A DNA stretch of 62,940 bases, filler included, from Candidatus Woesearchaeota archaeon (lineage in GTDB: Archaea > Nanobdellota > Nanobdellia > Woesearchaeales > BM511), in assembly GCA_023266675.1 (NCBI GenBank). It is 5 parts of 5 records of this genome, joined end to end, with 100 filler letters (N's around TTAATTAATTAA, not from the genome) between each part and the next. Parts side by side here need not be neighbours in the genome. Positions count along the whole stretch, not along the records: positions 1 to 13,058 come from JAHFPP010000039.1; 4 more parts are not named here. The stretch is one strand, 5' to 3'. Shown one piece after another: positions 1-13,803 of this stretch (within the stretch, counting starts at the first letter, position 1; each line of letters begins with the position of its first letter). Below the pieces are notes generated by a model, which saw only the letters and a program-made list of their open reading frames with translations, was not told the origin of the DNA and ran no database searches. The position numbers and the translations under genes are program-made.

Positions 1-443
1 CTGTGTAGCATTTATTCCAGAATCCTTCCCTCTACATTCAAATTCAATTACCAAGTTGAGTATCTTTAGCATAAGTATCAGTTTTTATCTCATAGGTATA
101 TTCCTGGCCCATATAAGACATTTTAAGGTCATAAGTAATATTTTTACAATGGAAAATTAAAAACAAAAAAATTTAAAAAAAAATTTTTACAGGACACATA
201 GTAGAAGTGCGCAAAGAAAAAGGGGTACCCTATAATTAAAAAGAGAAGAGTCTATGTTTATAGGCGCTTTGATTGGTTGAGAATTTTGAACCAAAAAAAA
301 TGAAAAAAAATCTGCGTGGACCTGGGCGGGTCCTTGAGGGGTCCTAATTTAGGGGGCTTATTAAAGGTGCGAGCCTAAATAGACCCCTTAAATGACCCAC
401 TTAGACCCCTAATTTATAGGCTCTAAGGTTCTATTTAGACCCC

Positions 444-617
444 TTAATCAAGACCCTTACCTTGATGCTTCGGCTTCCTCTTGTAGTCCTTTACAGACTT
501 GTGTACCTTATGTTTAAAATGTGGCACACCGAGTTCAATCTTTGCCTGACGATTAGCTGCACGTTCCATTAGCATAATTTGTAGCTTAGTGATTTTCGTA
601 TTGTTTTTCTTTTTCAT
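444..617 (-). CDS. Small basic phage-type protein (KHKVHKSVKDYKRKPKH motif)
   Basis: ATG at 617 is exactly 13 nt from the minus-strand motif; the track start at 668 reads through the motif. Confidence 0.7.
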   Translation of the reverse strand: MKKKNNTKITKLQIMLMERAANRQAKIELGVPHFKHKVHKSVKDYKRKPKHQGKGLD

Positions 618-671
618 ATTATTATAGGTCGAGTAAAAGAAAAAAAAGAAAGGGGAAATTTTCCCCACTCT

Positions 672-896
672 TTACGAGATTTTCTTTTTTTCTTTGTTCC
701 ATACACCGTATGATTTAGCATAAGGATTACCACCTACATACTTTTCAAATACCTTTACAACCGTACCTGTTGGTAATTCGTTCAATATACATGGATTGGT
801 GCTAAACATATCGTATTCAGTACCTTTGATTTGTTCTTTATTGGCTAATTTCTCGTTTAACTCTTTTTTGCTTTTAGCTTGAATGTAGATTGTCAT
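672..896 (-). CDS. Hypothetical phage protein
   Basis: 74 aa, downstream of minus-strand motif 923-931 and an A/C-rich leader. Confidence 0.75.
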   Translation of the reverse strand: MTIYIQAKSKKELNEKLANKEQIKGTEYDMFSTNPCILNELPTGTVVKVFEKYVGGNPYAKSYGVWNKEKKKIS

Positions 897-1026
897 ATTA
901 GTTTGTTTTGGTTGGTATATTCTTATAGGTCGAGATTTTCTAAAAAAAGAAAAAGTTGTTTAAGCCTAAAGGACTTTCTTTTTTTTCTTTTGTCTGACCT
1001 ATAAAGATATACCAAAAACAAACCAA

Positions 1027-1362
1027 ATGATGAACGTAGGCGAAAAAATCAACATAGAAGAGTTAAAAAAAGGCAGAGATTTAGATTGTGCCGAAATAAT
1101 GAACTTTTTACAGGCTCATAAACAACGTTTTTGGTGTTGGGGCGCACATAAGTTTATCAAAATGACCAATTCAGCACTACGCTTCAATGTAAGCGGTCTA
1201 ATTCATACAGGACACGTTTATATATTTATCAATGGTGCTGACTACTTTGATATATATTTAACGAGTAATCAGGGCACGATTAAGGCAGTTTTTAATGACA
1301 TTGATATTGAAAGTTTGTTTAGTGTAATAGATGAAAATATTGAAATAAAAAGAAGGGGTTAA
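1027..1362 (+). CDS. Hypothetical phage protein
   Basis: 111 aa, follows motif at 996; hairpin plus T-tract after the stop. Confidence 0.8.
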   Translation: MMNVGEKINIEELKKGRDLDCAEIMNFLQAHKQRFWCWGAHKFIKMTNSALRFNVSGLIHTGHVYIFINGADYFDIYLTSNQGTIKAVFNDIDIESLFSVIDENIEIKRRG

Positions 1363-1421
1363 CCTTTCTTTTTTTTCTTTTCTTTGACCTATAATAATAT
1401 ACCAACCAAAACAACCAACCG

Positions 1422-1727
1422 ATGAAAAATTTAGCAGATTTTAAAAAGTTAGCGACAATAGGCTCTAAATGGGAAGCTAAACATCATTTAACTTTTGCAG
1501 GGCGTGATGAAAATGGAAAAGCTATTTATACTACAAAGGATTTAGGGGTTCGTGAGGTGAGCATCAAACAAAGTAATTCAATTGCTTTTAAACAAGTAAA
1601 AACGGACGGCACAATTTCTGATAGTTGGTTGCAATATCCAAAGGCTTCGGACTGTAAATTTACAAATGATTCTATTGAAATTTATGAGGGCGAAACATTG
1701 GTATTAACATATAAACAAGCAAGTTAA
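1422..1727 (+). CDS. Hypothetical phage protein
   Basis: 101 aa between motifs 1386 and 1748. Confidence 0.75.
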   Translation: MKNLADFKKLATIGSKWEAKHHLTFAGRDENGKAIYTTKDLGVREVSIKQSNSIAFKQVKTDGTISDSWLQYPKASDCKFTNDSIEIYEGETLVLTYKQAS

Positions 1728-1781
1728 TTCTTTTTTTTCTTTTGTTTGACCTATAAGAATATAAACCAAAACGATATAGCT

Positions 1782-1964
1782 ATGTTTGACTATCCTAAAA
1801 GCAAATATTATTCATACAGTACAAGAGCAGAAGATTGGGCAAATTGTCAACCGATTAAAAGTCTTTTGTTAAAGCAGCGAAAAGGGAATTTTCTAACTTT
1901 AGAAGAAAAGAAGCGTATTTTAAAAGAAGCTGAAAAGAAACGTATTGAAAATAAAACGAAGTAG
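1782..1964 (+). CDS. Hypothetical phage protein
   Basis: First ATG after motif 1748; stop abuts the next motif. Confidence 0.65.
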   Translation: MFDYPKSKYYSYSTRAEDWANCQPIKSLLLKQRKGNFLTLEEKKRILKEAEKKRIENKTK

Positions 1965-1998
1965 ATTCTTTTTTTTGTTTTCTTTGACCTATAATAAT

Positions 1999-2181
1999 AT
2001 GGAAAACGAGAAATTAAAAGCAAAAATTATAGAGTTATGGCATACAAGCCGTTGCAATAATGTTTCAAGGTATGACCGTATGATATATGTTAGAGATTGG
2101 CTTAAAAAAGAAAGTCCTGAATTGGTAATTGATTTAAGCGCAAAGAAAATATGGTTTGCCATAGAAGATGCTATTAGTTAG
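1999..2181 (+). CDS. Hypothetical phage protein (leaderless class)
   Basis: ATG at +13 from motif 1986. Confidence 0.7.
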   Translation: MENEKLKAKIIELWHTSRCNNVSRYDRMIYVRDWLKKESPELVIDLSAKKIWFAIEDAIS

Positions 2182-2235
2182 ATTCTTTTTTTTCTTTTGT
2201 CTGACCTATAAGAATATATCAAAAACAACCAAACG

Positions 2236-2583
2236 ATGAAAGAGGAATCTGTAATAAATCATTATCTTATTGCTGCTTTATGGACTGCCGAACTTGATGG
2301 TCGTAATGTAGCTGAAATATCAGCTGAATCAATTAAAAAATCAGAAATAGATGTAAACAACTTTGTTAAGGGAGCATTGCCTCTTTTGAAACAATATAAA
2401 ACACCTATGACACCTGCTCAATTGGGACACGATTTTTGGCTTACTCGCAATCACCATGGCGTTGGATTTTGGGATAGGGATTTGGGCGAATTGGGGGATA
2501 AATTGACTGAATTAGCACATACATTTAAAGCGGTGAATGTATTTGGTGAAAATGATAATAAAGATGAAATTATTATTGAATAG
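2236..2583 (+). CDS. Conserved phage-type hypothetical protein (GHDFWLTRNHHGVGFWDR motif)
   Basis: 115 aa after motif 2203; motif-rich globular sequence. Confidence 0.8.
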   Translation: MKEESVINHYLIAALWTAELDGRNVAEISAESIKKSEIDVNNFVKGALPLLKQYKTPMTPAQLGHDFWLTRNHHGVGFWDRDLGELGDKLTELAHTFKAVNVFGENDNKDEIIIE

Positions 2584-2655
2584 TCAGGGGAGTTTCCCCT
2601 TTTCTTTTTTTCTTTTTCTTTGACCTATAATAATATAACCAAAACAAACAACTCT

Positions 2656-2898
2656 ATGAACTCAATATTAATAAAAGCACTTCAAAAATTAATTAAGCCA
2701 TGTCCTTGTTGCGGAGGTAAAGATGTTTATTTTAAAATTATAGATGAAAAAACTCAACAAGATGTTTCAAATAAATTAGATACTTACAAACAAGCTACTT
2801 ACTTAAAAGAGCAAGTTGGATGTTTTACTTGTGGATTAAATATGCAAAAAGCAGAAGGATGTCAGGCAATTAACCAATGGAATAATAGGGTTACTTAA
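2656..2898 (+). CDS. Lar-family restriction alleviation-like Zn-ribbon protein
   Basis: KPCPCCGG...VGCFTCG...AINQWNNR matches the Lar pattern KPCPFCG..CxxCG..A.xxWNxR. Confidence 0.65.
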   Translation: MNSILIKALQKLIKPCPCCGGKDVYFKIIDEKTQQDVSNKLDTYKQATYLKEQVGCFTCGLNMQKAEGCQAINQWNNRVT

Positions 2899-2952
2899 TT
2901 CTTTTTTTCTTTTTCTTTGACCTATAATAATATAACCAAAACAAACAAACTT

Positions 2953-3072
2953 ATGAAAGCCATTCAAAAAATTTACATTCGTGAAGCATTTAAACGAACT
3001 TTAAAATTTATGTCAAAAAGCAAGCAAGCGGAGCGAATGATAATATTTAATAAAACGTATATGAATTATTAA
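2953..3072 (+). CDS. Small hypothetical protein (39 aa)
   Basis: Below the ORF-track cutoff; fills the unit after motif 2919. Confidence 0.5.
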   Translation: MKAIQKIYIREAFKRTLKFMSKSKQAERMIIFNKTYMNY

Positions 3073-3127
3073 ATAAAAAGGGATTAATTTCCCTTTCTTT
3101 TTTTCTTTTTCTTTGACCTATAATAAT

Positions 3128-3200
3128 ATAAGAGAGATGCCTTGATAAGCAGAATCTATCCCCGCTGAAAATGGGTAGGATTAATCCGCACCTACCTTAT
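3128..3200 (+). ncRNA. Putative structured small RNA, copy 1 of 4
   Basis: ORF-less unit after motif 3115; AGAGATGCCTT..AAGCAGAATC..GGATTAATCCGCACCTACCTTATATT, homologous to 8095-8170. Confidence 0.5.
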
Positions 3201-3274
3201 ATTTTGGCTTGGATTTTGCGTTTCTTTTTTTTATTATCTTTGACCTATAATAATATACCAACCAAAACAACCAA

Positions 3275-3418
3275 ATGAAACAGACATTCTTAAAACAGTT
3301 ATCCTCCGTACATTCTAATAATTTGGTTATTGGTGTTGTGATGGAAAAATATAAAATGACTGCTATACAAGTCAGAAGGGCGTTTAATAAAAAAGAGCGT
3401 AGAGAAATAGCAAAATAG
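3275..3418 (+). CDS. Small hypothetical protein (47 aa)
   Basis: Fills the unit between motifs 3242 and 3443. Confidence 0.55.
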   Translation: MKQTFLKQLSSVHSNNLVIGVVMEKYKMTAIQVRRAFNKKERREIAK

Positions 3419-3476
3419 ACGTTTCTTTTTTTTCTTTTCTTTGACCTATAAGGATATAACCAAAACAACCAAACAA

Positions 3477-4052
3477 ATGGAAACAGTAATAAAAAAACAC
3501 ATTACAAAAGTTGAATTGTTGAACTTGTTAAGCGAATTTCGCAAAAACATATCTGCTACAAATGTAGCTTTTGGAAACATAGTTTATTTCGTAGATGAAA
3601 GCGGAGCAAAAACGGTAAACAAGCAAAAAGTTTTACAAAAATTTGTCAGAGTTAATTGTACCATTGGCGCAAAGTATGAAAACCGAATAAACAGAGATTT
3701 AGTTAAACAGGGCGAAGAGGCGAATTTTACCGCTCAAAGTATGTCAGGCAAGGAATATATCAATGACGAGGGAATCGTTGCCATAGACGTTAAAACAAGG
3801 ACAAAACACTATCTTGTTGCTACGGTTGAAAATCATACAATTCCAACGACTGTTTATTTTCACGAGGGCAAACGTATTTCTAAAGAGGACGCAATTAAAA
3901 AAGAGTTGTTTATGCCTTCACATTTTGCACCAAAAATTTCGTCAGGACGTGGCAATATGTCAGAAGATAAAGACTTTCACACTATTAATCCGAATTTAAG
4001 CAATATTATTTCATTAACATTAAACAAAACAAAGTTTATAATTATTGACTAA
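3477..4052 (+). CDS. Hypothetical phage protein (191 aa)
   Basis: ATG after the leader of motif 3443; terminator-like GGGG..CCCC-T tract follows. Confidence 0.8.
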   Translation: METVIKKHITKVELLNLLSEFRKNISATNVAFGNIVYFVDESGAKTVNKQKVLQKFVRVNCTIGAKYENRINRDLVKQGEEANFTAQSMSGKEYINDEGIVAIDVKTRTKHYLVATVENHTIPTTVYFHEGKRISKEDAIKKELFMPSHFAPKISSGRGNMSEDKDFHTINPNLSNIISLTLNKTKFIIID

Positions 4053-4147
4053 AAAAGTTAAGGGGTGAAAAAATCCCCCTTCTTTTTTTTACTTTCCCTG
4101 ACCTATAAAGATATAAGAACCAAAAACACACGCTATGAAAAAAAATT

Positions 4148-4328
4148 GATAATTTGAGTTCGCTCCCTCTTCTTGGTTTATGGCATTGGCAGCCACAACA
4201 GCACCCCCGTTTAACAGCGGGGGCTAAACGCTTCAGTAAATTTTGATGCAGCTCTCCCCAGAGTTTATTGCAGGGGTGGATTAACCCTGACCTTTCGGTG
4301 GTCGATTCAAGTTGCGAACTTTCTATCT
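4148..4328 (-). ncRNA. Putative structured small RNA, copy 2 of 4
   Basis: Starts at +13 of minus-strand motif 4333-4341; 4271-4328 matches 9760-9817 at 57/58 nt; 5' AGUUCGC can pair with 3' GCGAACU (4157-4163); U-tract follows. Confidence 0.55.
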
Positions 4329-4425
4329 ATACTTATAGGTCGGGCAAAGAAAAAAAAAGAAACGCTCCCTATTCTTTTTTTTGTTTTCTTTGACCTATAA
4401 TAATATAACCAAAACAACCAACGCC

Positions 4426-4626
4426 ATGAGCTTATTACAACAAATATTTGAAGAGGGCAGAAAAGCTGAAAATAAGAAAAAAGCAAAGAGTATGACCTTT
4501 TCAAATGAAGGAAAATTTCTTAATGCAAAGATGGTGGTTTATGATGATGCCTTTTTTGAAATTGTTGGTGGCAAATATGATGGTAATTTGGTTCACCGTT
4601 GGGATATTGTAAAACCAAAAAATTGA
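4426..4626 (+). CDS. Hypothetical phage protein
   Basis: ATG after the leader of motif 4392. Confidence 0.7.
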   Translation: MSLLQQIFEEGRKAENKKKAKSMTFSNEGKFLNAKMVVYDDAFFEIVGGKYDGNLVHRWDIVKPKN

Positions 4627-4663
4627 TTCTTTCTTTTTTTTTCTTTCCCTGACCTATAAGGAT

Positions 4664-4870
4664 ATGAGAAAGCAAACAGATACAAATGGAAACAAACTTA
4701 TTTTAGGTAGCGACCTTTCAGATGAACAGAAAGCACTTCTTAAATTCAATGGTATGAAAAATCCTTTGTGGATTAATAATCATTCTTTTTGGTTTAAAGA
4801 TGGCAATCCGTCAACCGAACAAGGGTTTATATATCCAGTTGTTAATTCATTTTCACATTTGCCATATTAA
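4664..4870 (+). CDS. Hypothetical phage protein (leaderless class)
   Basis: ATG at +13 from motif 4651. Confidence 0.7.
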   Translation: MRKQTDTNGNKLILGSDLSDEQKALLKFNGMKNPLWINNHSFWFKDGNPSTEQGFIYPVVNSFSHLPY

Positions 4871-4903
4871 TTCTTTTTTTTAAAATCAACGACCTATAAG
4901 GAT

Positions 4904-5131
4904 ATGAACAGAAAATTATTAGCACTTCGTGCCAAAGTAAATAAACTTATTGATAGCAGCGAGTACAAAAGTGTAAAGCTGTATGGAATTTCTTGTAGCA
5001 GGTCTGACCTGGAGATGGTTATATTTTTTGCAGATATTTTGTTGCGACAAGGCAATATCAATGGTTATTGTATTTATAACAATGATATTAAAAAAATATT
5101 TGCGGAAGCAGGAATCACTATTGAAAGTTAA
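4904..5131 (+). CDS. Hypothetical phage protein (leaderless class)
   Basis: ATG at +13 from motif 4891. Confidence 0.7.
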   Translation: MNRKLLALRAKVNKLIDSSEYKSVKLYGISCSRSDLEMVIFFADILLRQGNINGYCIYNNDIKKIFAEAGITIES

Positions 5132-5188
5132 AATTCTTTTTTTTGTTTTGTTTGACCTATAAGGATATAACCAAAACAACCAATCATA

Positions 5189-5419
5189 ATGACACGCAAA
5201 GAATTTAAAAAATCAGTTTCTCAATTTGCTAAAGAAGTTTTAAAAAAACGTGGCAGTATTTATAGAGATGTAAAAATTAACCTTTCGCTCCCTACAATTT
5301 CATTCGGTGATTTTTTTGTACAAGGCGAATCAGCGGAGCAATTAATAGCAGAAGCACCAAAGGATATAAATTTGCGTACTTGGTTATTATTCTATTTAGA
5401 TGGAGCAGGAGCAATTTAA
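5189..5419 (+). CDS. Hypothetical phage protein
   Basis: Between motifs 5154 and 5445. Confidence 0.7.
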   Translation: MTRKEFKKSVSQFAKEVLKKRGSIYRDVKINLSLPTISFGDFFVQGESAEQLIAEAPKDINLRTWLLFYLDGAGAI

Positions 5420-5477
5420 AATTTTTCTTTTTTTTGTTTTGTTTGACCTATAAGGATATAACCAAAACCACAGAGCC

Positions 5478-5753
5478 ATGAAAACTCAACCGATAAACAG
5501 AGTAGGATTTAAAACATCTTGGATGACAGATGAAGATTCTAATGTAAATATTACAGTAGAGCCAATGCAAAATATTTCAAATGGTTCTGACGAAGTAGCA
5601 TTAACACCTGCACACGTTGAATTGAGAACGAGAATTGCAATGATTGAGGCGGTAATTTCGGGCAAAGGTTTTTCTAAATTTGTAAAAGAGAAAAAAGCTG
5701 AATTTTTGGAAGAATACAAATTATTTGTATCATTGGATGCACAGTTGGGTTAA
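5478..5753 (+). CDS. Hypothetical phage protein
   Basis: Between motifs 5445 and 5774. Confidence 0.7.
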   Translation: MKTQPINRVGFKTSWMTDEDSNVNITVEPMQNISNGSDEVALTPAHVELRTRIAMIEAVISGKGFSKFVKEKKAEFLEEYKLFVSLDAQLG

Positions 5754-5786
5754 TTCTTTTTTTTAAATTATTCGACCTATAAGGAT

Positions 5787-5987
5787 ATGAAAACATTTGA
5801 ATTTATTACATTAAATGCCAAACGAGTTAAAGAAACCAATGGCATTTATAAGGGGTTTGTAAAAACAGAAATCTTTAAACAAGATGGAACGTTAAAGGCA
5901 ATCATACCTGCTGAACAAACTCAACCACGTAAAAGTAAAAAATTCATTACATTAAATTGCTTTAAATTTCGTTTAAATTGGATTTAA
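5787..5987 (+). CDS. Hypothetical phage protein (leaderless class)
   Basis: ATG at +13 from motif 5774. Confidence 0.7.
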   Translation: MKTFEFITLNAKRVKETNGIYKGFVKTEIFKQDGTLKAIIPAEQTQPRKSKKFITLNCFKFRLNWI

Positions 5988-5991
5988 AATT

Positions 5992-6330
5992 ATGGAACAA
6001 AAAATATTAAGCCCGAAAATATCTAATTGGAAAGACCTTGTTGAGCAGTTTGGCTTGAGAACACCACTTGGAAAAAATTATAAAACTGCGGTTGAAATTT
6101 CAAGAGATTTAACTTTTGCAAATGAAAGAATTGACCTCAACGATAAAAGAGAGCAACCACGACCTCAAAAGGATGGAATTATGACTTTTGTAAGTCAGAG
6201 AGAGGATGAAATGACTTGTGTTACAATTGCATACGAGAGAGATAATTTTGATTCAGGGGTTTGTAATTTTGAGTTCGTTGGTATGGAAGGAGAGCGGAGA
6301 GTTTATGATTATTTAGGTACGGCAAAATAA
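5992..6330 (+). CDS. Hypothetical phage protein, second gene of a bicistronic unit
   Basis: Starts 4 nt after the previous stop, has no motif of its own. Confidence 0.7.
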   Translation: MEQKILSPKISNWKDLVEQFGLRTPLGKNYKTAVEISRDLTFANERIDLNDKREQPRPQKDGIMTFVSQREDEMTCVTIAYERDNFDSGVCNFEFVGMEGERRVYDYLGTAK

Positions 6331-6387
6331 TGTTTCTTTTTTTTCTTTTCTTTGACCTATAAGAATATACCAAAACAATCAGAGCAA

Positions 6388-6690
6388 ATGAAAAAAGACA
6401 CAGAAGTAACCGATATGATTTTCAGAGTTGACACTGCAAAAGAGTATAAAGACAACGTGTTTGCATTATTTCCTCACGAGGTTTGCACACGCAAAGGAGA
6501 TGTTACAACTTATCAACACATTGGGCAACATAGTTCGGGAGATTATAAAGCTTGTATTAGTCAATCACGACCTGCCACAGAACAAGAGTATAAAGATTTA
6601 AAAGCCGAATTGGATTCAATAGGCTACAATATAAACATTGTTAAAAAACAAAATTATAAAAAGTATTTAATATCCTACCGTAAAAGATAA
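6388..6690 (+). CDS. Conserved phage-type hypothetical protein (FALFP..YQHIGQHS..PATEQEY..L..EL..IGY)
   Basis: ATG after the leader of motif 6354. Confidence 0.75.
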   Translation: MKKDTEVTDMIFRVDTAKEYKDNVFALFPHEVCTRKGDVTTYQHIGQHSSGDYKACISQSRPATEQEYKDLKAELDSIGYNINIVKKQNYKKYLISYRKR

Positions 6691-6743
6691 TTTTTGGTTT
6701 GGTTTGTTTAAAATGCGGGAGTGGTTGCCCGATTGGATGGATT

Positions 6744-6808
6744 GCAAAGATTGGGATAGCGTCTTTGTTGTTTTAAAGGGGTAAGGATTGGGATAGCGTC
6801 CTTACCCC
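6744..6808 (+). other. Twin hairpins with an identical 11-nt loop TTGGGATAGCG; the second doubles as an intrinsic terminator
   Basis: GCAAAGA-loop-TCTTTGT (6744-6768) and GGGGTAAGGA-loop-TCCTTACCCC (6778-6808), followed by a T-tract. Confidence 0.65.
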
Positions 6809-6861
6809 CTTTCTTTTTTTCTTTTTCTTTGACCTATAATAATATACCAACCAAAACCACA

Positions 6862-7110
6862 ATGACAACTACTGTAACTGCCCATAATGTTCTTGTTAGT
6901 AAAGCCATTCTCAATACAGATTATTTTCAGTTTAAAGAATTATTTCTGAAGGGATGCAGGAATTGCAATAAATTGGTTAAATATAACCATACCAAAGAAA
7001 AACGTTTTATGAAAGAAAATAGGTATGTTTATATTTGCGAATGTGCTGAATGTAAAAATCCGTTATTGCTTGATGGAGTAGATATGTACCTATTGAACGG
7101 AAAAGTATAG
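6862..7110 (+). CDS. Small Zn-ribbon protein (CxxC..CxxC)
   Basis: CRNC and CAEC; after motif 6831. Confidence 0.65.
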   Translation: MTTTVTAHNVLVSKAILNTDYFQFKELFLKGCRNCNKLVKYNHTKEKRFMKENRYVYICECAECKNPLLLDGVDMYLLNGKV

Positions 7111-7144
7111 TTTCTTTTTTTTGTTTTCTTTGACCTATAATATT

Positions 7145-7366
7145 ATGAAAGCAAACGAAATAACATCAATAGGAGTGTTGGTATCACACAAAGGCGGTAA
7201 AAACCTGACACCTATTTTTAAAGGTAGTCAATTCCCTATCTTTGTTTATGTTACAAATAATGAGTTTGACACAGTAAAAGACAATAAAAAACTGATGAAA
7301 AAATTGGTTATTAAAAAAATAAAAGAGAAAGAATTTAAAACTTATTCTGAATGGATAAGGGAGTAG
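7145..7366 (+). CDS. Hypothetical phage protein (leaderless class)
   Basis: ATG at +13 from motif 7132. Confidence 0.7.
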   Translation: MKANEITSIGVLVSHKGGKNLTPIFKGSQFPIFVYVTNNEFDTVKDNKKLMKKLVIKKIKEKEFKTYSEWIRE

Positions 7367-7421
7367 TTTCTTTTTTTTCTTTTGTCTGACCTATAATAAT
7401 ATAACCAAAACAATCGAACTC

Positions 7422-7646
7422 ATGGATAATGCAGAGATAAAGCTCGTACATATTTCACAAATATCAAAAGGTGATACGATTGTTGCCAATGATGGCAAGT
7501 TGACCACAGTATGCACTAACAATATAGAAAGGGGCGGATTTTGTGGAGATACTTTGTTTGGAGATAGTTATCGTTCGGGTACTATACCAGTTCAAAAAGT
7601 TGTGGGATGGATAGGTAAAAATGGCTCAGTTGTTCCGATTAGATAA
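7422..7646 (+). CDS. Hypothetical phage protein
   Basis: After motif 7388; VHISQI..GDT..TLFGDSY pattern. Confidence 0.75.
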   Translation: MDNAEIKLVHISQISKGDTIVANDGKLTTVCTNNIERGGFCGDTLFGDSYRSGTIPVQKVVGWIGKNGSVVPIR

Positions 7647-7701
7647 TTCTTTTTTTCTTTTTCTTTGACCTATAACAATATAAACCAAAACAATCGAACA
7701 A

Positions 7702-7905
7702 ATGGCAAAAAAGAAAAGATACGATGTTCTTTCTCCTGATGGATTTGCAATCGAAAGAGAGAAAGATTATGCAACAAGAGAAGAGGCAATTGCGGCTTTT
7801 ACTGAATGGGCAAAACGATTTGAAAAGCAGGGATATTACAGTTCAAATAATGGACGTATTCCATTGAAAGACCTTGAAGATGAATGTAGTTTAATAGAAG
7901 TATAA
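7702..7905 (+). CDS. Hypothetical phage protein
   Basis: After motif 7667. Confidence 0.75.
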   Translation: MAKKKRYDVLSPDGFAIEREKDYATREEAIAAFTEWAKRFEKQGYYSSNNGRIPLKDLEDECSLIEV

Positions 7906-7922
7906 ATTTAAAAACAAAAACG

Positions 7923-8042
7923 ATGGGAGATATTAAAATAATGCAAAGTGATAAAGAAATACGAATAAGTGTTTTCCCGATGAAATATCCGAGCGGAAAA
8001 GATATGCGGAGATTAAGAAGGGCGGCAAATCGAAATAGTTAA
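7923..8042 (+). CDS. Small hypothetical protein (39 aa)
   Basis: A-rich leader; second ORF of the unit, then hairpin and T-tract. Confidence 0.45.
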   Translation: MGDIKIMQSDKEIRISVFPMKYPSGKDMRRLRRAANRNS

Positions 8043-8094
8043 ATGAGAGGGATTTTTCCCTTTCTTTTTTTTGTTTTCTCTGACCTATAAGTAT

Positions 8095-8170
8095 ATCAAG
8101 AGAGATGCCTTACAAAGCAGAATCGACCTCCGAGAGGGCAGGGTTAATCCACTCCTACCTTATATTCTGC
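8095..8170 (+). ncRNA. Putative structured small RNA, copy 3 of 4
   Basis: ORF-less unit after motif 8082; GAATCGACC-TCCGAGAGGG-CAGGGTTAATCCACTCCT core shared with the minus-strand copies. Confidence 0.55.
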
Positions 8171-8307
8171 TGGTCTTTCTTTTTTTTATTTTCTTTGACC
8201 TATAATATTGATGCCTTATATTTTGGTCGGTTTTTTGTTTAGGCTTGGATAAGTTTCTTTTTTTTCTTTTCTTTGACCTATAATAATATAACCAAAACAA
8301 ACGAACT

Positions 8308-8457
8308 ATGTTATTTGAAACTCCATTAAGTAAGACAAAAGTTAGAAATGGTATTTATGCCTATAAATATGCTAACGGCTGTATAAATATTAACGGGCAA
8401 AAATACTTTTTTTATTCCATAAAAAATGCAATAAAATTATGGAGAAGTAAAAACTAA
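8308..8457 (+). CDS. Small hypothetical protein (49 aa)
   Basis: Fills the unit after motif 8275. Confidence 0.55.
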   Translation: MLFETPLSKTKVRNGIYAYKYANGCININGQKYFFYSIKNAIKLWRSKN

Positions 8458-8545
8458 TTTTCTTTTCAGCTTAAAGTACTTTCTTTTTTTTCTTTTCTTT
8501 GACCTATAATAATATAAACAAACAAACTAAAAACCCAAAACGAAA

Positions 8546-9496
8546 ATGGCACACAACTTAGAAAATGTAAATGGCAAAACAAGTTTTGCAAGTACTGAAA
8601 AAGCATGGCACAATTTAGGACAAATTGTGGAAGGTGCAATGACTTCTGAAGAAGCAATCAAATTGGCAAGTTTGGACTACGAAGTAGCTTTAAAACCTTG
8701 TACTTTTGATGTTGAAATGGGCAAAAGTATTGTAGTACCAAACAATTTTGTTTCTTACCGTAAAGATACAAATATGCCTTTGGGAGTAGTGGGAAACCGT
8801 TACACAATCGTACAAAACACAGAAGCATTTGGATTTTTTGATTCAATTGTTGGGGGCAAAATCGCAATGTTTGAAACGGCAGGAGTTTTGGGGCAAGGTG
8901 AAAGAATTTTTGTAAGTGCAAAAATGCCTGATGTTATCAAAATTGATGGAACTGATGACATCACAGAGGTTTACGTTCTTTTAACAAGTTCACACGATGG
9001 TTCAGGTTCAATAATTGCAGCGGTAACACCTGTAAGAGTTGTATGCCAAAATACCTTAAATGCAGCCCTTAAAAACACTATTTCACGAGTTGCAATACGT
9101 CATACCACAAGTGCATCAAAACGTCTTGAAGATGCTCACAAATTGCTTGGAATTTCTCACAAGTTTGTAACTGAAACAAATGAATTGTTTAACTCACTTG
9201 CAAAAAAATCCATCACAGATGCACGTGTTAAGGAACTTGTTGAAAACTTGTTCAAAAGTGAAAAAGATGATTCAACCAGAATTACGAACATTAGAGAGGC
9301 TGTTATGGCTTCGTACTTTGACGGAATCGGACAAGATAAAATAATTGGTACGGCTTGGGGTGCTTACAACGGAATCACTCACTACTTAGACCACGTTCAA
9401 AAATACAGAACAGGAGATGTTAAATTTGACTCCCTGATGAACGGTGCAAGTTCAAAGATAGCAGAGAGTGCTTTTCAACAATTAATCACTCTATAA
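8546..9496 (+). CDS. DUF932 / TIGR03299-type phage/plasmid protein
   Basis: AWHNLG, LGVVGNRYTIVQNTEAFGFFD, FETAGVL, SSHDGSGS, TPVRVVCQNTL, GTAWGAYNGIT motifs. Confidence 0.9.
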   Translation: MAHNLENVNGKTSFASTEKAWHNLGQIVEGAMTSEEAIKLASLDYEVALKPCTFDVEMGKSIVVPNNFVSYRKDTNMPLGVVGNRYTIVQNTEAFGFFDSIVGGKIAMFETAGVLGQGERIFVSAKMPDVIKIDGTDDITEVYVLLTSSHDGSGSIIAAVTPVRVVCQNTLNAALKNTISRVAIRHTTSASKRLEDAHKLLGISHKFVTETNELFNSLAKKSITDARVKELVENLFKSEKDDSTRITNIREAVMASYFDGIGQDKIIGTAWGAYNGITHYLDHVQKYRTGDVKFDSLMNGASSKIAESAFQQLITL

Positions 9497-9704
9497 GCAT
9501 AAAAAGGGGCAAAAACAGGGGAGGGATTTTAAATATCTCCCTTTCTTTTTTTTGTTTTGCTTGACCTATAATCATATAACAAATAAAAACTAAAAAGATG
9601 AATCACTTAAATTCAGAAGCTCAATTGTATGATTTTCATTCGGCTGAATTATTAGCCAATGCGGGAAAGTAAAAAAACAATAAATGCTGAAGCATGGCAG
9701 GTGG

Positions 9705-9817
9705 GACAAAAGTTCTGCCTGCTTTTTTATTTGCTCTCCCTATTGAGCAGAGTATAAGGCAGGAGTGGATTAACCCTGACCTTTCGGTGGTCGATTCAAG
9801 TTGCGAACTTTCTATCT
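9705..9817 (-). ncRNA. Putative structured small RNA, copy 4 of 4 (3' end uncertain)
   Basis: Starts at +13 of minus-strand motif 9822-9830; near-identical 58 nt to 4271-4328. Confidence 0.55.
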
Positions 9818-9938
9818 GATATTATAGGTCGAATAAAATAAAAAAAAGAAACGTATCTTTATCTCCTTTAGGCTCAAAGTACTTTCTTTTTTTTACTCTC
9901 CCTGACCTATAATAATATAACCAAAACAAAACAACCAA

Positions 9939-10124
9939 ATGAACTACGAGCCACGCAAAATATCTTCAACAGAAAATAGTGAATATTTAGCATTGTTTCA
10001 CAAGGCTGCTAATAGAGTTGTTCTTGATGAAGCAGAGCGAACAAGATTTAATAATTTGCTTACATTAAAACGAGCAAGACAAAGATTTGATATTCAATTT
10101 AACAATATGGTTAAATATAACTAA
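9939..10124 (+). CDS. Hypothetical phage protein
   Basis: After motif 9904. Confidence 0.65.
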   Translation: MNYEPRKISSTENSEYLALFHKAANRVVLDEAERTRFNNLLTLKRARQRFDIQFNNMVKYN

Positions 10125-10174
10125 GCAAATGCTCAAAGCAGTTCTTTTTTTTCTTTTCTTTGACCTATAATAAT

Positions 10175-10345
10175 ATGAAAGCAAAACCTGAAATAATAAA
10201 AATTAAAAGAGCGTGTCCTTGTTGTAATAAAAAAGATAATGTAAGAAAGGATTTTGATTTCCCAAAGACAGTGAGGTGTTGTGATAATTGCGGAGCTGAT
10301 TTTATGACTAATGGTGAAATAATATTTAATCCAAAAGTTAATTAA
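10175..10345 (+). CDS. Small Zn-ribbon protein (leaderless class)
   Basis: CPCC..CDNCG; ATG at +13 from motif 10162. Confidence 0.7.
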   Translation: MKAKPEIIKIKRACPCCNKKDNVRKDFDFPKTVRCCDNCGADFMTNGEIIFNPKVN

Positions 10346-10398
10346 TTCTTTTTTTTATTTTCTTTGACCTATAACAATATAACCAACAAAAACAACCA

Positions 10399-10719
10399 AT
10401 GAAAAATTTAGAGGAAAAATTAAAGCAGATTGATAAAATATTGGTTGCTCCATATCGTAAAGGTTTGAACTATGTTAAATTGATTGACCTTAGAGCAAAA
10501 GTATTAGCAGCTCTTCCTAAAAAAGTTCATGCTGATTTAACAGAGGCAGAGAAAATTGAATTGAAAAAAATCACCACAGAGATATTCGGCAATTCTACGA
10601 TGTTTATAATCTTTGATGATGAACAAGCAAACAATCCAAACTTGCAGCGTTGGGAGGATTTAATGACAAAACAAGCAAATTTTCAACAATATATGCTTCG
10701 TTGTATGGCTCAAAATTGA
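10399..10719 (+). CDS. Hypothetical phage protein
   Basis: After motif 10366. Confidence 0.7.
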   Translation: MKNLEEKLKQIDKILVAPYRKGLNYVKLIDLRAKVLAALPKKVHADLTEAEKIELKKITTEIFGNSTMFIIFDDEQANNPNLQRWEDLMTKQANFQQYMLRCMAQN

Positions 10720-10764
10720 GTAACTATTCAATTCTTTTTTTTAAAAACCTTGACCTATAATAAT

Positions 10765-10983
10765 ATGAGAAAGTATAAAGTAGAACATAGAGCAGTAATT
10801 AACACAGCAGGCGGTTTAATGTTTCGCAATGATGATTTGTATATTTCCCCAATATTTGAAAGAGGAGATTCGGGTGAATTGGCACGTAAACAAACAAGGG
10901 GCGAAGCATTGACAAGAGAAGAAAAAAATATTGTATCGTTATATGCTGAAAAAAAACGTAAAGAAAATTTAATGAAAAAATAG
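10765..10983 (+). CDS. Hypothetical phage protein (leaderless class)
   Basis: ATG at +13 from motif 10752. Confidence 0.7.
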   Translation: MRKYKVEHRAVINTAGGLMFRNDDLYISPIFERGDSGELARKQTRGEALTREEKNIVSLYAEKKRKENLMKK

Positions 10984-11017
10984 TTTCTTTTTTTCAATCT
11001 CCCTGACCTATAATAAT

Positions 11018-11416
11018 ATGAAACAGACAAAGCCAAAATTCAGCACACTTGTAAAAAATCTTTTAGCAATTGGTGGCACACGAGTTGTTGGCGACTTTGA
11101 TGAAGACTTGGCTAAAATTTTAAGCAGAGGCGAAGTGTTCTCCCCAAAGAAAGTTAAGAGTGTAAAAATGATACCTTGTAGATGCCATGCGAACGCAGGA
11201 GTATTTTGGGATAATTATTCATATAAAAACGGTTTTGATAACATTCAAATTGTAACTGGTTTTTGTTTGTCAGAAGATGGTTTATGGCGTTCGCATTCTT
11301 TTTTGTATCAGCCAATAGATAATGTAATAATTGAAACAACTGTAAAGAGAAAAATCTATTTTGGATTTGCTTTGAACTTAGAGGAATCTAAAAGTCACCA
11401 CGAAAATAATCATTAA
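11018..11416 (+). CDS. Putative papain/transglutaminase-like fold protein (Cys-His)
   Basis: RCHANA..IVTGF..GLWRSHSF..IIETT pattern; ATG at +13 from motif 11005. Confidence 0.55.
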   Translation: MKQTKPKFSTLVKNLLAIGGTRVVGDFDEDLAKILSRGEVFSPKKVKSVKMIPCRCHANAGVFWDNYSYKNGFDNIQIVTGFCLSEDGLWRSHSFLYQPIDNVIIETTVKRKIYFGFALNLEESKSHHENNH

Positions 11417-11421
11417 ATTCT

Positions 11422-11622
11422 ATGAATACAATCACATTTTCAAGACAAGCATTAAGCGACTACAAAAACAAGTCTTTAGATGCTATTGTAAACGGAAACA
11501 CCACTTTTGTACATAAAGGGGCGCTTATTAAAGTAAGTGATGCTGAACGGCTCATTGATAAGTTTACACCACACTTTTTGGATAAAAATAAGGATGAAGT
11601 AACAATACTGTATAATTTTTAA
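11422..11622 (+). CDS. Hypothetical phage protein, second gene of the unit
   Basis: 5 nt after the previous stop. Confidence 0.65.
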   Translation: MNTITFSRQALSDYKNKSLDAIVNGNTTFVHKGALIKVSDAERLIDKFTPHFLDKNKDEVTILYNF

Positions 11623-11713
11623 TCTTTCTTTTTTCAATCTCCCTGACCTATAATTTCAGAAACAAAGTTTCTGTCATAATAATATAAATCAAACAACTTA
11701 AAACTTTAAAATT

Positions 11714-11839
11714 ATGAAATCAATCTTCATCTTCGGAATTTTATCAATTGGATTATTAACGTCAGCACCAATTCTCCCTCGTAAAATTCGGGTTCCAAAA
11801 GAAACAGTTCACATTTTCAAAAAAGGATTCAGAGGTTAA
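11714..11839 (+). CDS. Small protein with hydrophobic N-terminus (41 aa)
   Basis: MKSIFIFGILSIGLLTSA; after interrupted motif 11645. Confidence 0.45.
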   Translation: MKSIFIFGILSIGLLTSAPILPRKIRVPKETVHIFKKGFRG

Positions 11840-11968
11840 AACTTTGGGGCGGAAAAATCAAGTCGGCATAAAACGAGAAGTCATACTCACGTAAGTCCCC
11901 AGGAATTACCCGCTCTTCTTTTTTTTATTTTCTTTGACCTATAATAATATAACTAAAACAAACGAGCC

Positions 11969-12235
11969 ATGCCTGACACAGTAGAAAAAGTATTAACTCC
12001 ACAAGAGCGCAAAGAAAAGTTTATAACTGATTTACAAGCAAAACTTGAAAAACGTTTTGAAGATGGTAAAACACTTGTAGCGGGATTTGAAACGTGTTCA
12101 AGAGCGCCAGCGTTTGGTTGGAGTGTTGAAGAGTATATGTATATGCCAATTGTGGCTTCACGTTTGAGAGAAAAAGGATTCACAGTATCAAGCAAAGTGA
12201 ATTGGGAGGTTACAGATTGGAATATTGCATTGTAG
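11969..12235 (+). CDS. Hypothetical phage protein
   Basis: After motif 11936. Confidence 0.7.
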   Translation: MPDTVEKVLTPQERKEKFITDLQAKLEKRFEDGKTLVAGFETCSRAPAFGWSVEEYMYMPIVASRLREKGFTVSSKVNWEVTDWNIAL

Positions 12236-12269
12236 TTTCTTTTTTTTAAATTCCTTGACCTATAACAAT

Positions 12270-12542
12270 ATGAAAAAGATAATCGTATTATTCGGAAATT
12301 TTACTTTTCATCATTTTGATGAAATTGAATTAAAATTATTTAAACAGAATACTGAACAGAAGGCGCTTATACATTCATTGGATAAAGTGTTTGAAGTTGA
12401 CACAGAGGCAGAAGTTGATGAACTTATTAATCAACTTGAAAATGTTTATTATGCGTGGATTGTACCAAGCGAATTTAAAGGGGAAATTGCAATTGAAGAG
12501 CCAAACAAAACACTTGACGAATTGATTGCAGAAAAAAAATAA
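12270..12542 (+). CDS. Acidic hypothetical phage protein (leaderless class)
   Basis: ATG at +13 from motif 12257. Confidence 0.7.
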   Translation: MKKIIVLFGNFTFHHFDEIELKLFKQNTEQKALIHSLDKVFEVDTEAEVDELINQLENVYYAWIVPSEFKGEIAIEEPNKTLDELIAEKK

Positions 12543-12579
12543 GTGTTTCTTTTTTTTAAATTCCTTGACCTATAATAAT

Positions 12580-12996
12580 ATGAAACAGACAAAAGTAATA
12601 AAGTTGATGATAATTAATAATTTCATTGACCATTGGACAAGCAATGAGGCTGAACGTGAACGAATGAAAAACACTGCAGCTGTTTATGTTACAGAAGACC
12701 ATGTTGATGAAATTGCACAATCGAATCTTTTAGATTCAATTGTTGTGAATAAGGATGCAGCAAAAGAGAGAGTTGAAAAAACGTATAATGAAGTTCTTGC
12801 AAAAATTAAGTCTATGGCTAAAAATGGACTTTCTACATTTAGAATTGACTTGCTTGTGGCTGATTCAATTGAACTTGAAGAAATTGTAAATAAACTTGAA
12901 AGTGAGCATCAAATAATGATTGGGTACAAAGGTAAAATGTATAATGGTTATGAGAGGGATTTAAAGAGTTGGACAATCAGATTTTTCACAAATTAA
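12580..12996 (+). CDS. Hypothetical phage protein (leaderless class)
   Basis: ATG at +13 from motif 12567. Confidence 0.7.
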   Translation: MKQTKVIKLMIINNFIDHWTSNEAERERMKNTAAVYVTEDHVDEIAQSNLLDSIVVNKDAAKERVEKTYNEVLAKIKSMAKNGLSTFRIDLLVADSIELEEIVNKLESEHQIMIGYKGKMYNGYERDLKSWTIRFFTN

Positions 12997-13058
12997 TAAC
13001 TTTCTTTTTTTTATTTTGTTTGACCTATAATAAAAAACAAACAGATGAACAAGCAAGG

Positions 13059-13158
13059 NNNNNNNNNNNNNNNNNNNNNNNNNNNNNNNNNNNNNNNNNN
13101 NNTTAATTAATTAANNNNNNNNNNNNNNNNNNNNNNNNNNNNNNNNNNNNNNNNNNNN
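13059..13158. other. Artificial contig linker
   Basis: N44-TTAATTAATTAA-N44 (stops in all six frames). Confidence 0.99.
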
Positions 13159-13803
13159 TACAGAAAAACCACATTAAAGGATCTGAAACGCTTTTCAAAA
13201 AAATACAAATTAAAAGTAAAAATAATTTCTTTTAAAAAAGAGTTTGGGTTTTCGCTTGATGAAGCAGTAAAAAAGTTTGATGAGAATCCTTGCCATATAT
13301 GCGGTGTGCTTAGGCGATTTCTTTTAAACAAATATTCAAAAAAATACGATGTTATAGTTACAGGTCACAATCTTGATGATGAAGCTCAGGCAGTTATGAT
13401 GAATATTTTAAAGGCGCAGACTGAACTTCAGACAAGGCTTGGACCTATAAGCGGCGTAAAAACAAACGCCGGATTTACAAAGAGGGTAAAACCTCTATAT
13501 TTTATAAAAGAAAAGGAAGTAAAGGCGTATACTCTTCTTATGGGATTTAACATAAATTTTACTGAGTGTACATATTCGCACTTATCATTCAGATCAGAAG
13601 TTCAAAAGGAATTAAATAATTATGAATCAAAGCACAGCGGTGCAAAACTTAACTTGATAAATAATTTTTTAAAATCACTTCCAAAATTAAAAAATAAATT
13701 CAAAAGTGAAGAAAACGTTTCATTATGTCAAAGATGCGGCGAACCATCAGCAGGAAATGAATGCAGAACTTGTCAGATAATTGCTAAATTCAATTCTAAA
13801 TAA
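13159..13803 (+). CDS. TtuA/NcsA (TIGR00269-type) tRNA 2-thiolation protein, 5'-truncated by contig edge
   Basis: Frame open from 13159: PCHICGVLRR, TGHNLDDEAQ, RVKPL, C-terminal CxxCGEP..CxxC. Confidence 0.9.
   Translation, partial: YRKTTLKDLKRFSKKYKLKVKIISFKKEFGFSLDEAVKKFDENPCHICGVLRRFLLNKYSKKYDVIVTGHNLDDEAQAVMMNILKAQTELQTRLGPISGVKTNAGFTKRVKPLYFIKEKEVKAYTLLMGFNINFTECTYSHLSFRSEVQKELNNYESKHSGAKLNLINNFLKSLPKLKNKFKSEENVSLCQRCGEPSAGNECRTCQIIAKFNSK

Follow-up and report, generated by a model that had tools for sequence, protein, structure and literature searches.

A two-box unit heads small cassettes on four contigs of one bin

The window analysed here, 62,940 nucleotides of DNA (filler included) filed under Candidatus Woesearchaeota archaeon (GCA_023266675.1), opens with one complete contig, C3 (positions 1-13058), of an 83-contig, 1.22-Mb bin from a groundwater metagenome. 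Positions 444..13058 of this contig hold an array, mainly on the plus strand, of small cassettes that are each headed by a copy of the same unit, for which we propose a role as promoter of a mobile element. Aligning the copies revealed that this unit is longer than the motif described in an initial annotation and consists of TTCTTTTTTTT (the T-box, or box 1), nine pyrimidine-rich variable bases, (T)GACCTATAA (box 2), nnAT and a final A. In the aligned copies the T-box is 87-100% conserved per position and the final A 97%, the two boxes lie exactly 9 nt apart, and the unit carries ~58 bits of information over 39 positions, the nine ascertained positions being 100% conserved by construction. The aligned units show no dyad symmetry, in agreement with the earlier description of the motif as non-palindromic.

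The 37 plus-strand and 4 minus-strand copies counted previously were recovered as 41 exact copies of the 9-mer GACCTATAA in 1-13058, where copies with one mismatch are absent altogether. When up to one mismatch was allowed, the 9-mer matched the whole window 47 times, compared to 12.4 ± 3.5 times (max 21) in 100 shuffles; six of these matches fall in the second contig, one exact (13442) and five with one mismatch, and look like chance. The exact copy (13442-13450) sits inside an open reading frame (ORF) of this cellular contig and lacks a T-box, and is a chance copy outside the array. The run of N with TTAATTAATTAA at 13059..13158, which belongs to neither strand, is the artificial joint of C3 to this unrelated contig and has no biology, and the array is truncated by the contig end at 13058 rather than by a biological boundary. 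Successive plus-strand copies on C3 are 78-1062 bp apart (median 292), matching the spacing of ~80-1100 bp noted before, and the intervals are filled with ORFs and not with the short uniform spacers of clustered regularly interspaced short palindromic repeats (CRISPR), which were rightly discounted.

The array extends to three more contigs of the bin, C10 (7 copies), C68 (29 copies, 28 with T-box) and C74 (29 copies), on each of which all T-box-bearing copies lie on one strand, while the other 79 bin contigs hold eight single chance copies of the 9-mer. Together the four contigs (56 kb) contain 106 exact 9-mers, 105 of them with a T-box, plus one variant with one mismatch. Three of the contig ends fall within ~60 nt of a unit, and the assembler therefore evidently broke at the repeat.

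The units point at genes. Each T-box-bearing copy with a recognisable downstream gene or RNA is oriented towards that gene or RNA, and the minus-strand copies in C3 lie back to back with plus-strand copies and head genes or RNAs on their own strand. An ORF of at least 25 aa that begins with ATG starts within 90 nt downstream of 93 of the 106 copies; among the remaining 13, at least four precede a conserved small RNA and two are cut by contig ends. On C3 itself, 35 of the 41 units have such an ORF (two of these frames overlap small RNA A, see below) and four to five head small-RNA cassettes. The description as one-gene cassettes thus suits most units, but at least three units head two ORFs and at least four to five a small RNA instead of a protein gene. 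The claim that stop codons lie next to the following copy holds for 60 of the 100 main-strand units with an upstream ORF on the four contigs (21 of 37 in C3), in which the stop codon ends 0-6 nt before the T-box.

Among the cassettes of C3, the minus-strand unit at 916..951 heads a 74-aa ORF (672-896) and lies back to back with the plus-strand unit at 976..1011, which heads a 111-aa ORF (1027-1362). Further plus-strand units are followed by ORFs of 39 aa (unit 2899..2934, ORF 2953-3072), 66 aa (4372..4407, 4426-4626), 76 aa (5134..5169, 5189-5419), 91 aa (5425..5460, 5478-5753), 100 aa (6334..6369, 6388-6690), 61 aa (9884..9919, 9939-10124), 106 aa (10346..10381, 10399-10719) and 88 aa (11916..11951, 11969-12235). 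Two ORFs (7702-7905, 67 aa; 7923-8042, 39 aa) follow the unit at 7647..7682, and the gene behind the last unit (13002..13037) is cut by the contig end. All units and features of C3 described below are on the plus strand unless stated otherwise.

Related units point to Bacteroidota mobile DNA

A scan of one genome per prokaryote species, followed by enumeration of exact copies, located multi-copy unit loci on contigs of at least six other metagenome-assembled genomes (MAGs) that, among the matches listed, were all labelled Bacteroidota, Bacteroidetes, Bacteroidia or Chitinophaga, and both boxes with their fixed spacing were also found in short metagenome contigs. One 11-kb contig (G002:C435) carries 28 unit copies, and a sample of 399 further genomes from the class of G002 yielded no match to the 29-nt pattern. 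Six units on an 88-kb Chitinophaga-labelled contig precede small genes in the interval from an AcrB/HlyD efflux operon to a serine recombinase gene, after which come three small genes, a tyrosine integrase gene and then LptF/G and glycosyltransferase genes. Serine recombinases, tyrosine integrases and proteins sorted by the type IX secretion system (T9SS) also surround the units on four contigs of three MAGs (G003:C131, G003:C100, G004:C16 and G005:C64), along with defence genes (GmrSD, BrxC/D-like, Eco57I-type methylase, SNF2/PLD and CHAT).

Since unit arrays and clusters occur, among the matches listed, only in Bacteroidota MAGs, including integrated chromosomal islands, we conclude that C3, C10, C68 and C74 are best read as Bacteroidota mobile DNA mis-binned with a DPANN-like archaeon. 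The genes of the bin are archaeal in kind (class I LysRS, HerA, Mre11-like phosphoesterase and GatB; DPANN-like), and its scores are 95.9% completeness and 0.9% contamination; the "clean" DPANN bin would thus include 56 kb of foreign DNA, a kind of contamination that marker-based checks miss. The low-GC bin contigs C40, C45, C54, C59, C60, C70 and C73 carry cellular or unassignable genes with no phage or conjugation hallmark, and a tetranucleotide principal component analysis of the bin separated out no further contigs of the element.

Start codons and small RNAs suggest a promoter

That the unit is a gene-heading transcription signal, as the initial annotation had it, agrees well with its orientation towards the next gene or RNA and with its fixed distances to start codons. 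Counting offsets in nt after the G of GACC, we found ATG exactly at offset 13 in 25 of the 93 ORF-bearing units and at none of the offsets 14-19, the others being grouped at 20-26 and 30-40. ORFs of at least 41 aa begin at 25 of the 26 ATGs with offset 13, all except C74 14899. Offset 13 is occupied by an A with 97% conservation and is the most frequent start-codon position in the relatives as well (12/56, a set in which the M203 rows duplicate those of G3), an orthologue pair (window 4904 and G002:C435 1188) has kept it, and the bodies of the conserved small RNAs start at offset 13-16. On these grounds, transcription probably starts at the A of offset 13.

On C3, an ATG at offset 13 is found behind the minus-strand unit at 615..650 (57-aa ORF, 444-617) and behind the units at 1966..2001 (60 aa, 1999-2181), 4631..4666 (68 aa, 4664-4870), 4871..4906 (75 aa, 4904-5131), 7112..7147 (73 aa, 7145-7366), 10142..10177 (56-aa zinc ribbon, 10175-10345), 10732..10767 (72 aa, 10765-10983), 12237..12272 (90 aa, 12270-12542) and 12547..12582 (138 aa, 12580-12996), as well as behind two units with two ORFs each, 5754..5789 (5787-5987, 66 aa; 5992-6330, 112 aa) and 10985..11020 (11018-11416, 132 aa; 11422-11622, 66 aa). 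With the conserved A as the start point, roughly one message in four would be leaderless, and the remaining ones would have A/C-rich leaders of 7-27 nt that lack a Shine-Dalgarno sequence, which is normal for Bacteroidota. In a few units, box 2 and the gene are separated by an inserted hairpin or a long leader (50-69 nt) (window 11654-11690, L007 near 5047 and L006 near 6548, the latter before a sigma factor gene), which may provide extra regulation as an operator or attenuator; the window example is the unit at 11625..11660, where box 2 is followed by an inserted small hairpin and a long leader, and then by a 41-aa ORF (11714-11839).

The unit also heads RNA. A conserved small RNA of ~75-85 nt, with two sub-families (A and B) that can be aligned as one, recurs directly behind a unit in every copy and has three helices that include some compensatory changes, as well as a loop with the invariant sequence UUAAUCC. 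Family A lies at 3128..3211 (copy 1, behind the unit at 3095..3130) and 8095..8175 (copy 2, behind 8062..8097), both with approximate ends, and family B on the minus strand at 4253..4328 (copy 1, behind the minus-strand unit at 4326..4361) and 9742..9817 (copy 2, behind the minus-strand unit at 9815..9850), both with approximate 3' ends; the two family B units lie back to back with those at 4372 and 9884, respectively. Further copies lie at L006 near 690 (-), L008 near 15040 (-), L146 2500 and 8315, and L220 near 257, and the small RNAs of the window had no match in Rfam at E <= 1. These small-RNA cassettes argue that the signal acts on transcription and not on translation. Behind the unit at 8197 (8177..8212), positions 8210-8240 hold an apparent, internally deleted remnant of small RNA A, in which the 5' GATGCCTTA is joined to the 3' TATTTTGG.

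Relatives with protein identities of 49-68% have preserved both boxes and the distance between them, with the 9-nt spacer being variable, and this suggests selection on two contacts at a fixed distance. The T-box may have a second role. A GC-rich hairpin ends no more than 5 nt before it in ~22 of 101 units of the four contigs, and an independent terminator scan of C3 yielded 12 terminator-like sites compared to 6.4 ± 2.8 in shuffles, most of them at units; in a minority of the units, the T-run thus appears to serve also as the U-tail of an intrinsic terminator. The repeat earlier called promoter/terminator would accordingly deserve the second half of that name in about a fifth of the units (hairpin plus T-run), but not in the rest, which have no hairpin. 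On C3, a hairpin and T-run terminator lies just upstream of the unit at 1366..1401 (101-aa ORF, 1422-1727), and hairpin terminators at 2586-2600, 3077-3096 and 8045-8064 precede the unit at 2602..2637 (80-aa Lar-like ORF, 2656-2898) and the two family A units. Hairpins are also found upstream of the units at 4080..4115, with no ORF of at least 25 aa downstream, and 9543..9578, and a strong hairpin is part of the 120 nt of non-coding DNA before the unit at 6811..6846 (82-aa ORF, 6862-7110). Most units have their T-box directly after a stop codon, and read-through is probable there.

A candidate sigma factor for the unit

Our preferred reading, to which we assign a probability of roughly 0.55, is that the unit is a private promoter of one family of Bacteroidota mobile elements and not of the host, that a T-run fused to it ends the preceding transcription unit in a minority of cases, and that it is read by the host core RNA polymerase together with a sigma factor of the element. 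C10 carries a gene (L006:5779-6495, minus strand) whose product matches Sigma70_r2 (E 3e-9) and r4_2 (E 4e-7) only, with no region 3, and phrog_1740 "sigma factor", a domain make-up like that of extracytoplasmic function (ECF) sigma factors. A unit lies 50 nt upstream of its ATG, and ECF sigma factors typically sit behind their own promoter. If offset 13 is taken as +1, the boxes span -33 to -23 and -14 to -5: TTC at about -33 runs straight into T8, a 17-nt spacer precedes GACCTA (about -13 to -8), and the start follows 7 nt later. Given this start, the inferred geometry fits ECF promoters, for which a homopolymeric T-tract right after the -35 is a documented determinant (tGAAACnTTTt...CGTA/CGTC, in the parts of Gaballa et al. 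2018, PMC5758882, drawn on here). The ECF-like geometry and the ECF-like sigma factor encoded behind a copy of the unit lead us to propose a sigma regulon, in which the host core polymerase with the element-encoded factor would read all copies. Changing T8 to TTTATTTT or changing GACC would each be predicted to abolish transcription.

Several points weigh against this reading. The sigma gene is present on only one of the four contigs, and the unit-bearing chromosomal islands lack a homologue: the best matches in those MAGs are conserved host ECF-like genes on other contigs, with 28-32% identity and without the motif upstream, so either another factor reads the unit there or the sigma factor is supplied in trans. 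The TTC of the -35 and the GACC of the -10 are unlike the AAC and CGT cores of studied ECF sigma factors, and only the geometry is alike. The start at offset 13 and the leaderless class are predicted from sequence, and box 2 holds a perfect TATAAT that, as the -10 of a primary sigma or of a T4-gp55-like factor, would place the start at offset 16-17 and leave the offset-13 ATGs to run-through transcripts. If the sigma factor must be made first, moreover, the genes would not be "early" in the strict sense, and no capsid, terminase, portal, tail, conjugation or polymerase gene was seen among the 141 (Pfam) or 131 (PHROGs) ORFs of this incompletely assembled element.

A conserved sigma-70-family gene of ~205 aa is present in four of five Bacteroidota MAGs (L272-L275; G003:C76, G001:C54, G005:C48 and G002:C15) and was discarded as a cognate reader, these being conserved host genes without the motif upstream. 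As a speculation that we hold improbable, the small islands (2-6 copies, before a serine recombinase, beside defence cargo) could have copied the private promoter to eavesdrop on the sigma factor of a large phage or phage-like element, as satellites or infection sensors. Such islands would switch on, and perhaps excise or rearrange, only while the large element is active in the cell.

Cassette differences among relatives

Comparison of C3 with G002:C435 revealed four collinear genes, at window 4904, 7422, 8308 and 8546 and at 1188, 1784, 2063 and 2688, respectively, with seven cassettes versus one and four versus zero between them. The first of these genes encodes the 75-aa product of the unit at 4871..4906, which is 49% identical to its homologue there, whose start is likewise at offset 13; the next two are the 74-aa ORF (7422-7646, phrog_3623; 54% identity) of the unit at 7368..7403 and the 49-aa ORF (8308-8457; 63%) of the unit at 8255..8290, and the last is the 316-aa DUF932 gene (8546-9496; PF06067, E 1e-60) of the unit at 8481..8516. 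In L220, small RNA A directly precedes a 195-aa homologue, 68% identical, of the 191-aa product (3477-4052) of the unit at 3423..3458, whereas C3 has an extra cassette between the two (unit 3222..3257, 47-aa ORF 3275-3418). L208 shares the 60-aa ORF (1782-1964; 62% identity) of the unit at 1728..1763, with neighbours unrelated to those in C3, and islands G1 and G4 differ in the order of the genes that they share.

On the suggestion that the repeat may double as a recombination handle, relatives differ by insertion or deletion of whole cassettes and by some reordering, but with proteins only 50-68% identical no breakpoint could be assigned to the interior of the repeat. These differences are compatible with what cassette exchange at the heads would produce, any gene-sized insertion or deletion looking the same at this divergence. 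With ~36 identical bases at each cassette head, homologous recombination between heads would be a plausible by-product that adds, deletes and reorders cassettes. A metatranscriptome of the same sample (X3) contained next to none of the array's sequence words. Read-level joints in the k-mer contigs of runs X1-X3, which are short and break at the repeat, were considered as signs of circles or of variable order and rejected, because all of them extend over 20-37 nt on one side, at units, and are repeat artefacts.

Alternative readings of the unit

The perfect TATAAT at offsets 4-9 in most copies, and the distance from the TTC of box 1 to it, which equals the 18-nt sigma-70 spacer, would also suit a strong promoter read by the host primary sigma factor or by a T4 gp55-like factor that needs only a -10, with the T-run as an upstream enhancer as in the promoter-early stem-loop (PeSL) and T4 early cassettes; PeSL cassettes do use host sigma-70 promoters, and islands without any sigma gene still carry the unit. 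We regard this as rather unlikely, since the Bacteroidota primary sigma factor uses TTTG and TAnnTTTG, which the unit lacks (TTTG-N17-23-TAnnTTTG has 0-3 matches per strand and contig in the arrays), and since sigma-70-like sites are not enriched (51 versus 52.1 ± 8.1 in shuffles), so that the motif is neither of these types, as was noted at the outset. The unit is, in addition, absent from host genes (outside the islands the 10-mer TGACCTATAA is at or below control level in five host MAGs), and the 25 start codons at offset 13 would lie upstream of a start 6-8 nt past TATAAT. A polymerase belonging to the element itself, either T7/SP6-like and single-subunit or virion-carried as in crAss-like phages, would likewise explain the absence from host genes, and TGACC-TATA would then serve for specificity and for melting, with transcription starting immediately downstream of TATA. 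The contiguous conserved block of 24 bp (offset -8 to +15) has about the size of T7-family promoters, its TGAC(C)CTATA is, as we take it, similar to the SP6 core, and the nearest phage matches of the sigma factor and the DUF932 protein are in crAss-like phages. Against such a polymerase, which we consider unlikely, stand the absence of PF00940 from the bin and from four other MAGs (weak evidence, as control genomes gave no match either), a largest ORF of only 353 aa on the four contigs, the invariant T-box 9 nt upstream, which has no T7-type counterpart, and the early transcripts of phage phi14:2, for which the part of the report considered here gives no common motif (bioRxiv 10.1101/2020.03.07.982082).

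Two further readings concern recombination and origin. In each of the five chromosomal contigs examined, the unit-led genes are immediately followed by a serine-recombinase (Resolvase) gene, and relatives differ by whole cassettes, as they would if the repeat were mainly the target of a dedicated site-specific recombinase, as in integrons and shufflons, and a promoter only secondarily. The unit is, however, co-oriented with genes and at a fixed distance from their start codons, the largest arrays have no resolvase, and the islands with a resolvase have only 2-6 copies; because the unit has no dyad symmetry and the large arrays (141 ORFs on four contigs) encode no recombinase, a dedicated recombinase acting on it is unlikely, and we give this reading as a whole very little credence. 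Even less probable, to the point of being scarcely credible, is that the contigs truly come from the DPANN-like archaeon or its virus, with the unit as an oligo-T terminator followed by a BRE/TATA promoter and leaderless starts ~26 nt downstream. The archaeal gene content and the completeness and contamination scores of the bin agree with it, oligo-T terminators and TATA boxes are archaeal features, and 39 of the 93 ATGs sit 30-40 nt after GACC; but the unit also lies inside Bacteroidota chromosome contigs, flanked by T9SS, GldM and LptF/G genes, a sigma-70-family gene is part of the array, the 25 start codons at offset 13 would fall upstream of the archaeal start, and several hairpin and U-run terminators are bacterial in kind.

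Cargo genes and kind of element

The cargo genes are mutually unrelated, as they had appeared to be, with all-against-all BLASTP returning only two paralogue pairs. Pfam matches were obtained for 8 of the 141 ORFs of the four contigs (DUF932, two Lar-like zinc ribbons, the ECF-like sigma factor, a ParB helix-turn-helix, DUF6900, a UVR motif and GP88), one of the two Lar-like matches, that of the 56-aa zinc ribbon at 10175-10345, being weak and below the Pfam cut-off. PHROGs matches were obtained for 13 of 131 ORFs, none of them structural; one is the 115-aa ORF (2236-2583, phrog_1915) of the unit at 2183..2218. For the proposed anti-host role of the genes, we found two weak Lar-like matches and a general ORFan character. 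The unit at 9543..9578, just after the DUF932 gene, heads a conserved micro-ORF of 24 aa (9598-9672), which is probably a real small protein since a similar ORF of 26 aa lies at the same place in G002:C435 (3698).

The nearest phage matches of the DUF932 protein (37% identity) and of the sigma factor (27-31%) are in crAss-like phages, and DUF932 is frequent in actinophages and plasmids as well. Searches of the four contigs for genes of phage structure or packaging, or of a phage RNA polymerase, were negative, and the labels "early" and "phage" are putative. We think that the element is most likely a large phage, with the "leading region" of a plasmid or of an integrative and conjugative element as the alternative. 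Megablast of the contig against phages returned no relative, a pattern scan of IMG/VR gave no arrays and five single chance matches, and searches of IMG/VR for related loci with DUF932 and with the sigma factor found no relative. A tblastn search of plasmids with DUF932 matched 122 records, all less than 35% identical and mostly actinobacterial, with no Bacteroidota among the matches listed.

The ORF-poor contig end beyond the two minus-strand cassettes (window 330-445) contains three direct copies of TAGACCCC(T)TAA (380, 402 and 436), as well as an inverted GGGGTCC and related words, and these repeats look like iterons, possibly of an origin, a partition site or an origin of transfer (oriT). 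Two ParB-like genes are present, one on C10 and one on C74.

A family of ~170 aa is common to the large array on C68 and to the islands (L007:260-742, minus strand; L141:88-594; L143:12666-13250, 15651-15986 and 16020-16556; L270:8190-8705) and lies directly before the serine recombinase gene in three islands. Its AlphaFold model (predicted local distance difference test, pLDDT, 79) has an N-terminal four-stranded sheet and helices; the family was dismissed as a shared reader of the unit, being unlike sigma factors, with no sequence match in the PDB and no Foldseek match at E <= 0.001. ESM Atlas matches of the 353-aa and 327-aa ORFs all scored below 0.9 and are leads only (viral clusters and a "replication protein" cluster).

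Comparison with known systems

If our preferred reading of the unit as a private promoter is true, the array would offer a clean regulon, with more than 100 natural copies of one 29-nt promoter read by a non-host factor. Bacteroidota transcription signals are poorly charted and orthogonal parts are few, and a sigma/promoter pair could serve Bacteroidota genetics. With ATG at +1 behind the same promoter in a quarter of the cases, the array would also be a natural experiment on leaderless versus short-leader translation. Its sequence would be a marker with which to retrieve a mobile-element family, defence-carrying islands among it, that virus catalogues miss (0 arrays in IMG/VR). A text search of the literature for GACCTATAA found, among the matches listed, no description of such a motif, its occurrences in the two phage papers examined being an unrelated sigma-70 list of pf16 and a primer, and a search on early promoters, transcription start sites and leaderless messages of Bacteroidetes phages found nothing relevant.

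Integron attC arrays differ from the array in that the latter has no hairpin-forming inverted repeats, its units are co-oriented with start codons and no integrase is encoded among the 141 ORFs. The Bacteroidota primary-sigma promoter (-33 TTTG, -7 TAnnTTTG) differs in both elements, which are absent from the unit. The host-takeover module of SPO1 and the early region of T4 are likewise dense in small genes of one temporal class, nearly each with a strong promoter, but these promoters use the host primary sigma factor. The crAss-like phage phi14:2, as far as covered in the part of the report used here (bioRxiv 10.1101/2020.03.07.982082), is comparable in being a Bacteroidota phage with a repeated promoter motif before a class of genes, its middle promoters; these differ in being few and of host type (TTG...TAnnTTTG), and the examined 48 kb of phi14:2 (52000-100418 of 100418 bp) contain no GACCTATAA.

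The likeness to ECF promoters, as described in the consulted parts of Gaballa et al. 2018 (PMC5758882), would lie, given a start at offset 13, in a -35 followed at once by a T-tract, a spacer of 16-17 nt and a short -10 about 7 nt before the start, and further in a sigma factor with regions 2 and 4 only, encoded behind a copy of its presumed own promoter. The cores are TTC and GACC here versus AAC and CGT there, the T-tract is 8 long and invariant versus 4-5 long and variable, and the array would be a predicted regulon of more than 100 promoters on a mobile element instead of a stress regulon.

The closest analogue, as proposed in the initial annotation, is the PeSL cassettes of the T4-type phages RB49 and phi1, taken here from parts of Arbiol et al. 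2010 (PMC2839356). In both systems a short conserved regulatory unit lies between small ORFan genes, giving each its own promoter and some a terminator, and relatives vary by insertion, deletion or replacement of whole cassettes, with the repeat as short homology for recombination; ORFans in a plastic region and cassette insertions and deletions among relatives were found here as well. PeSL units, however, combine a host sigma-70 promoter with an obligatory GGGG...CCCC stem-loop over ~100 bp, whereas the array fits neither a sigma-70 nor a host type (its unit has no -35/-10 pair at 16-18 nt), about a fifth of its units have a hairpin, its conserved part is ~36 bp and it is much denser, with 105 copies in 56 kb. 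Mini-circles and recombination between units are features of PeSL, while the array is known from its sequence alone, and its element is not established as a T4-type phage or as any phage. Because the host sigma-70 promoter and the obligatory stem-loop, two defining features, are both missing, we do not file the array under PeSL and describe it as PeSL-like in presumed function. What sets it apart would be a private promoter, an ECF-like layout with a candidate sigma factor, an extreme copy number, a leaderless subclass, small-RNA cassettes and islands with defence cargo.

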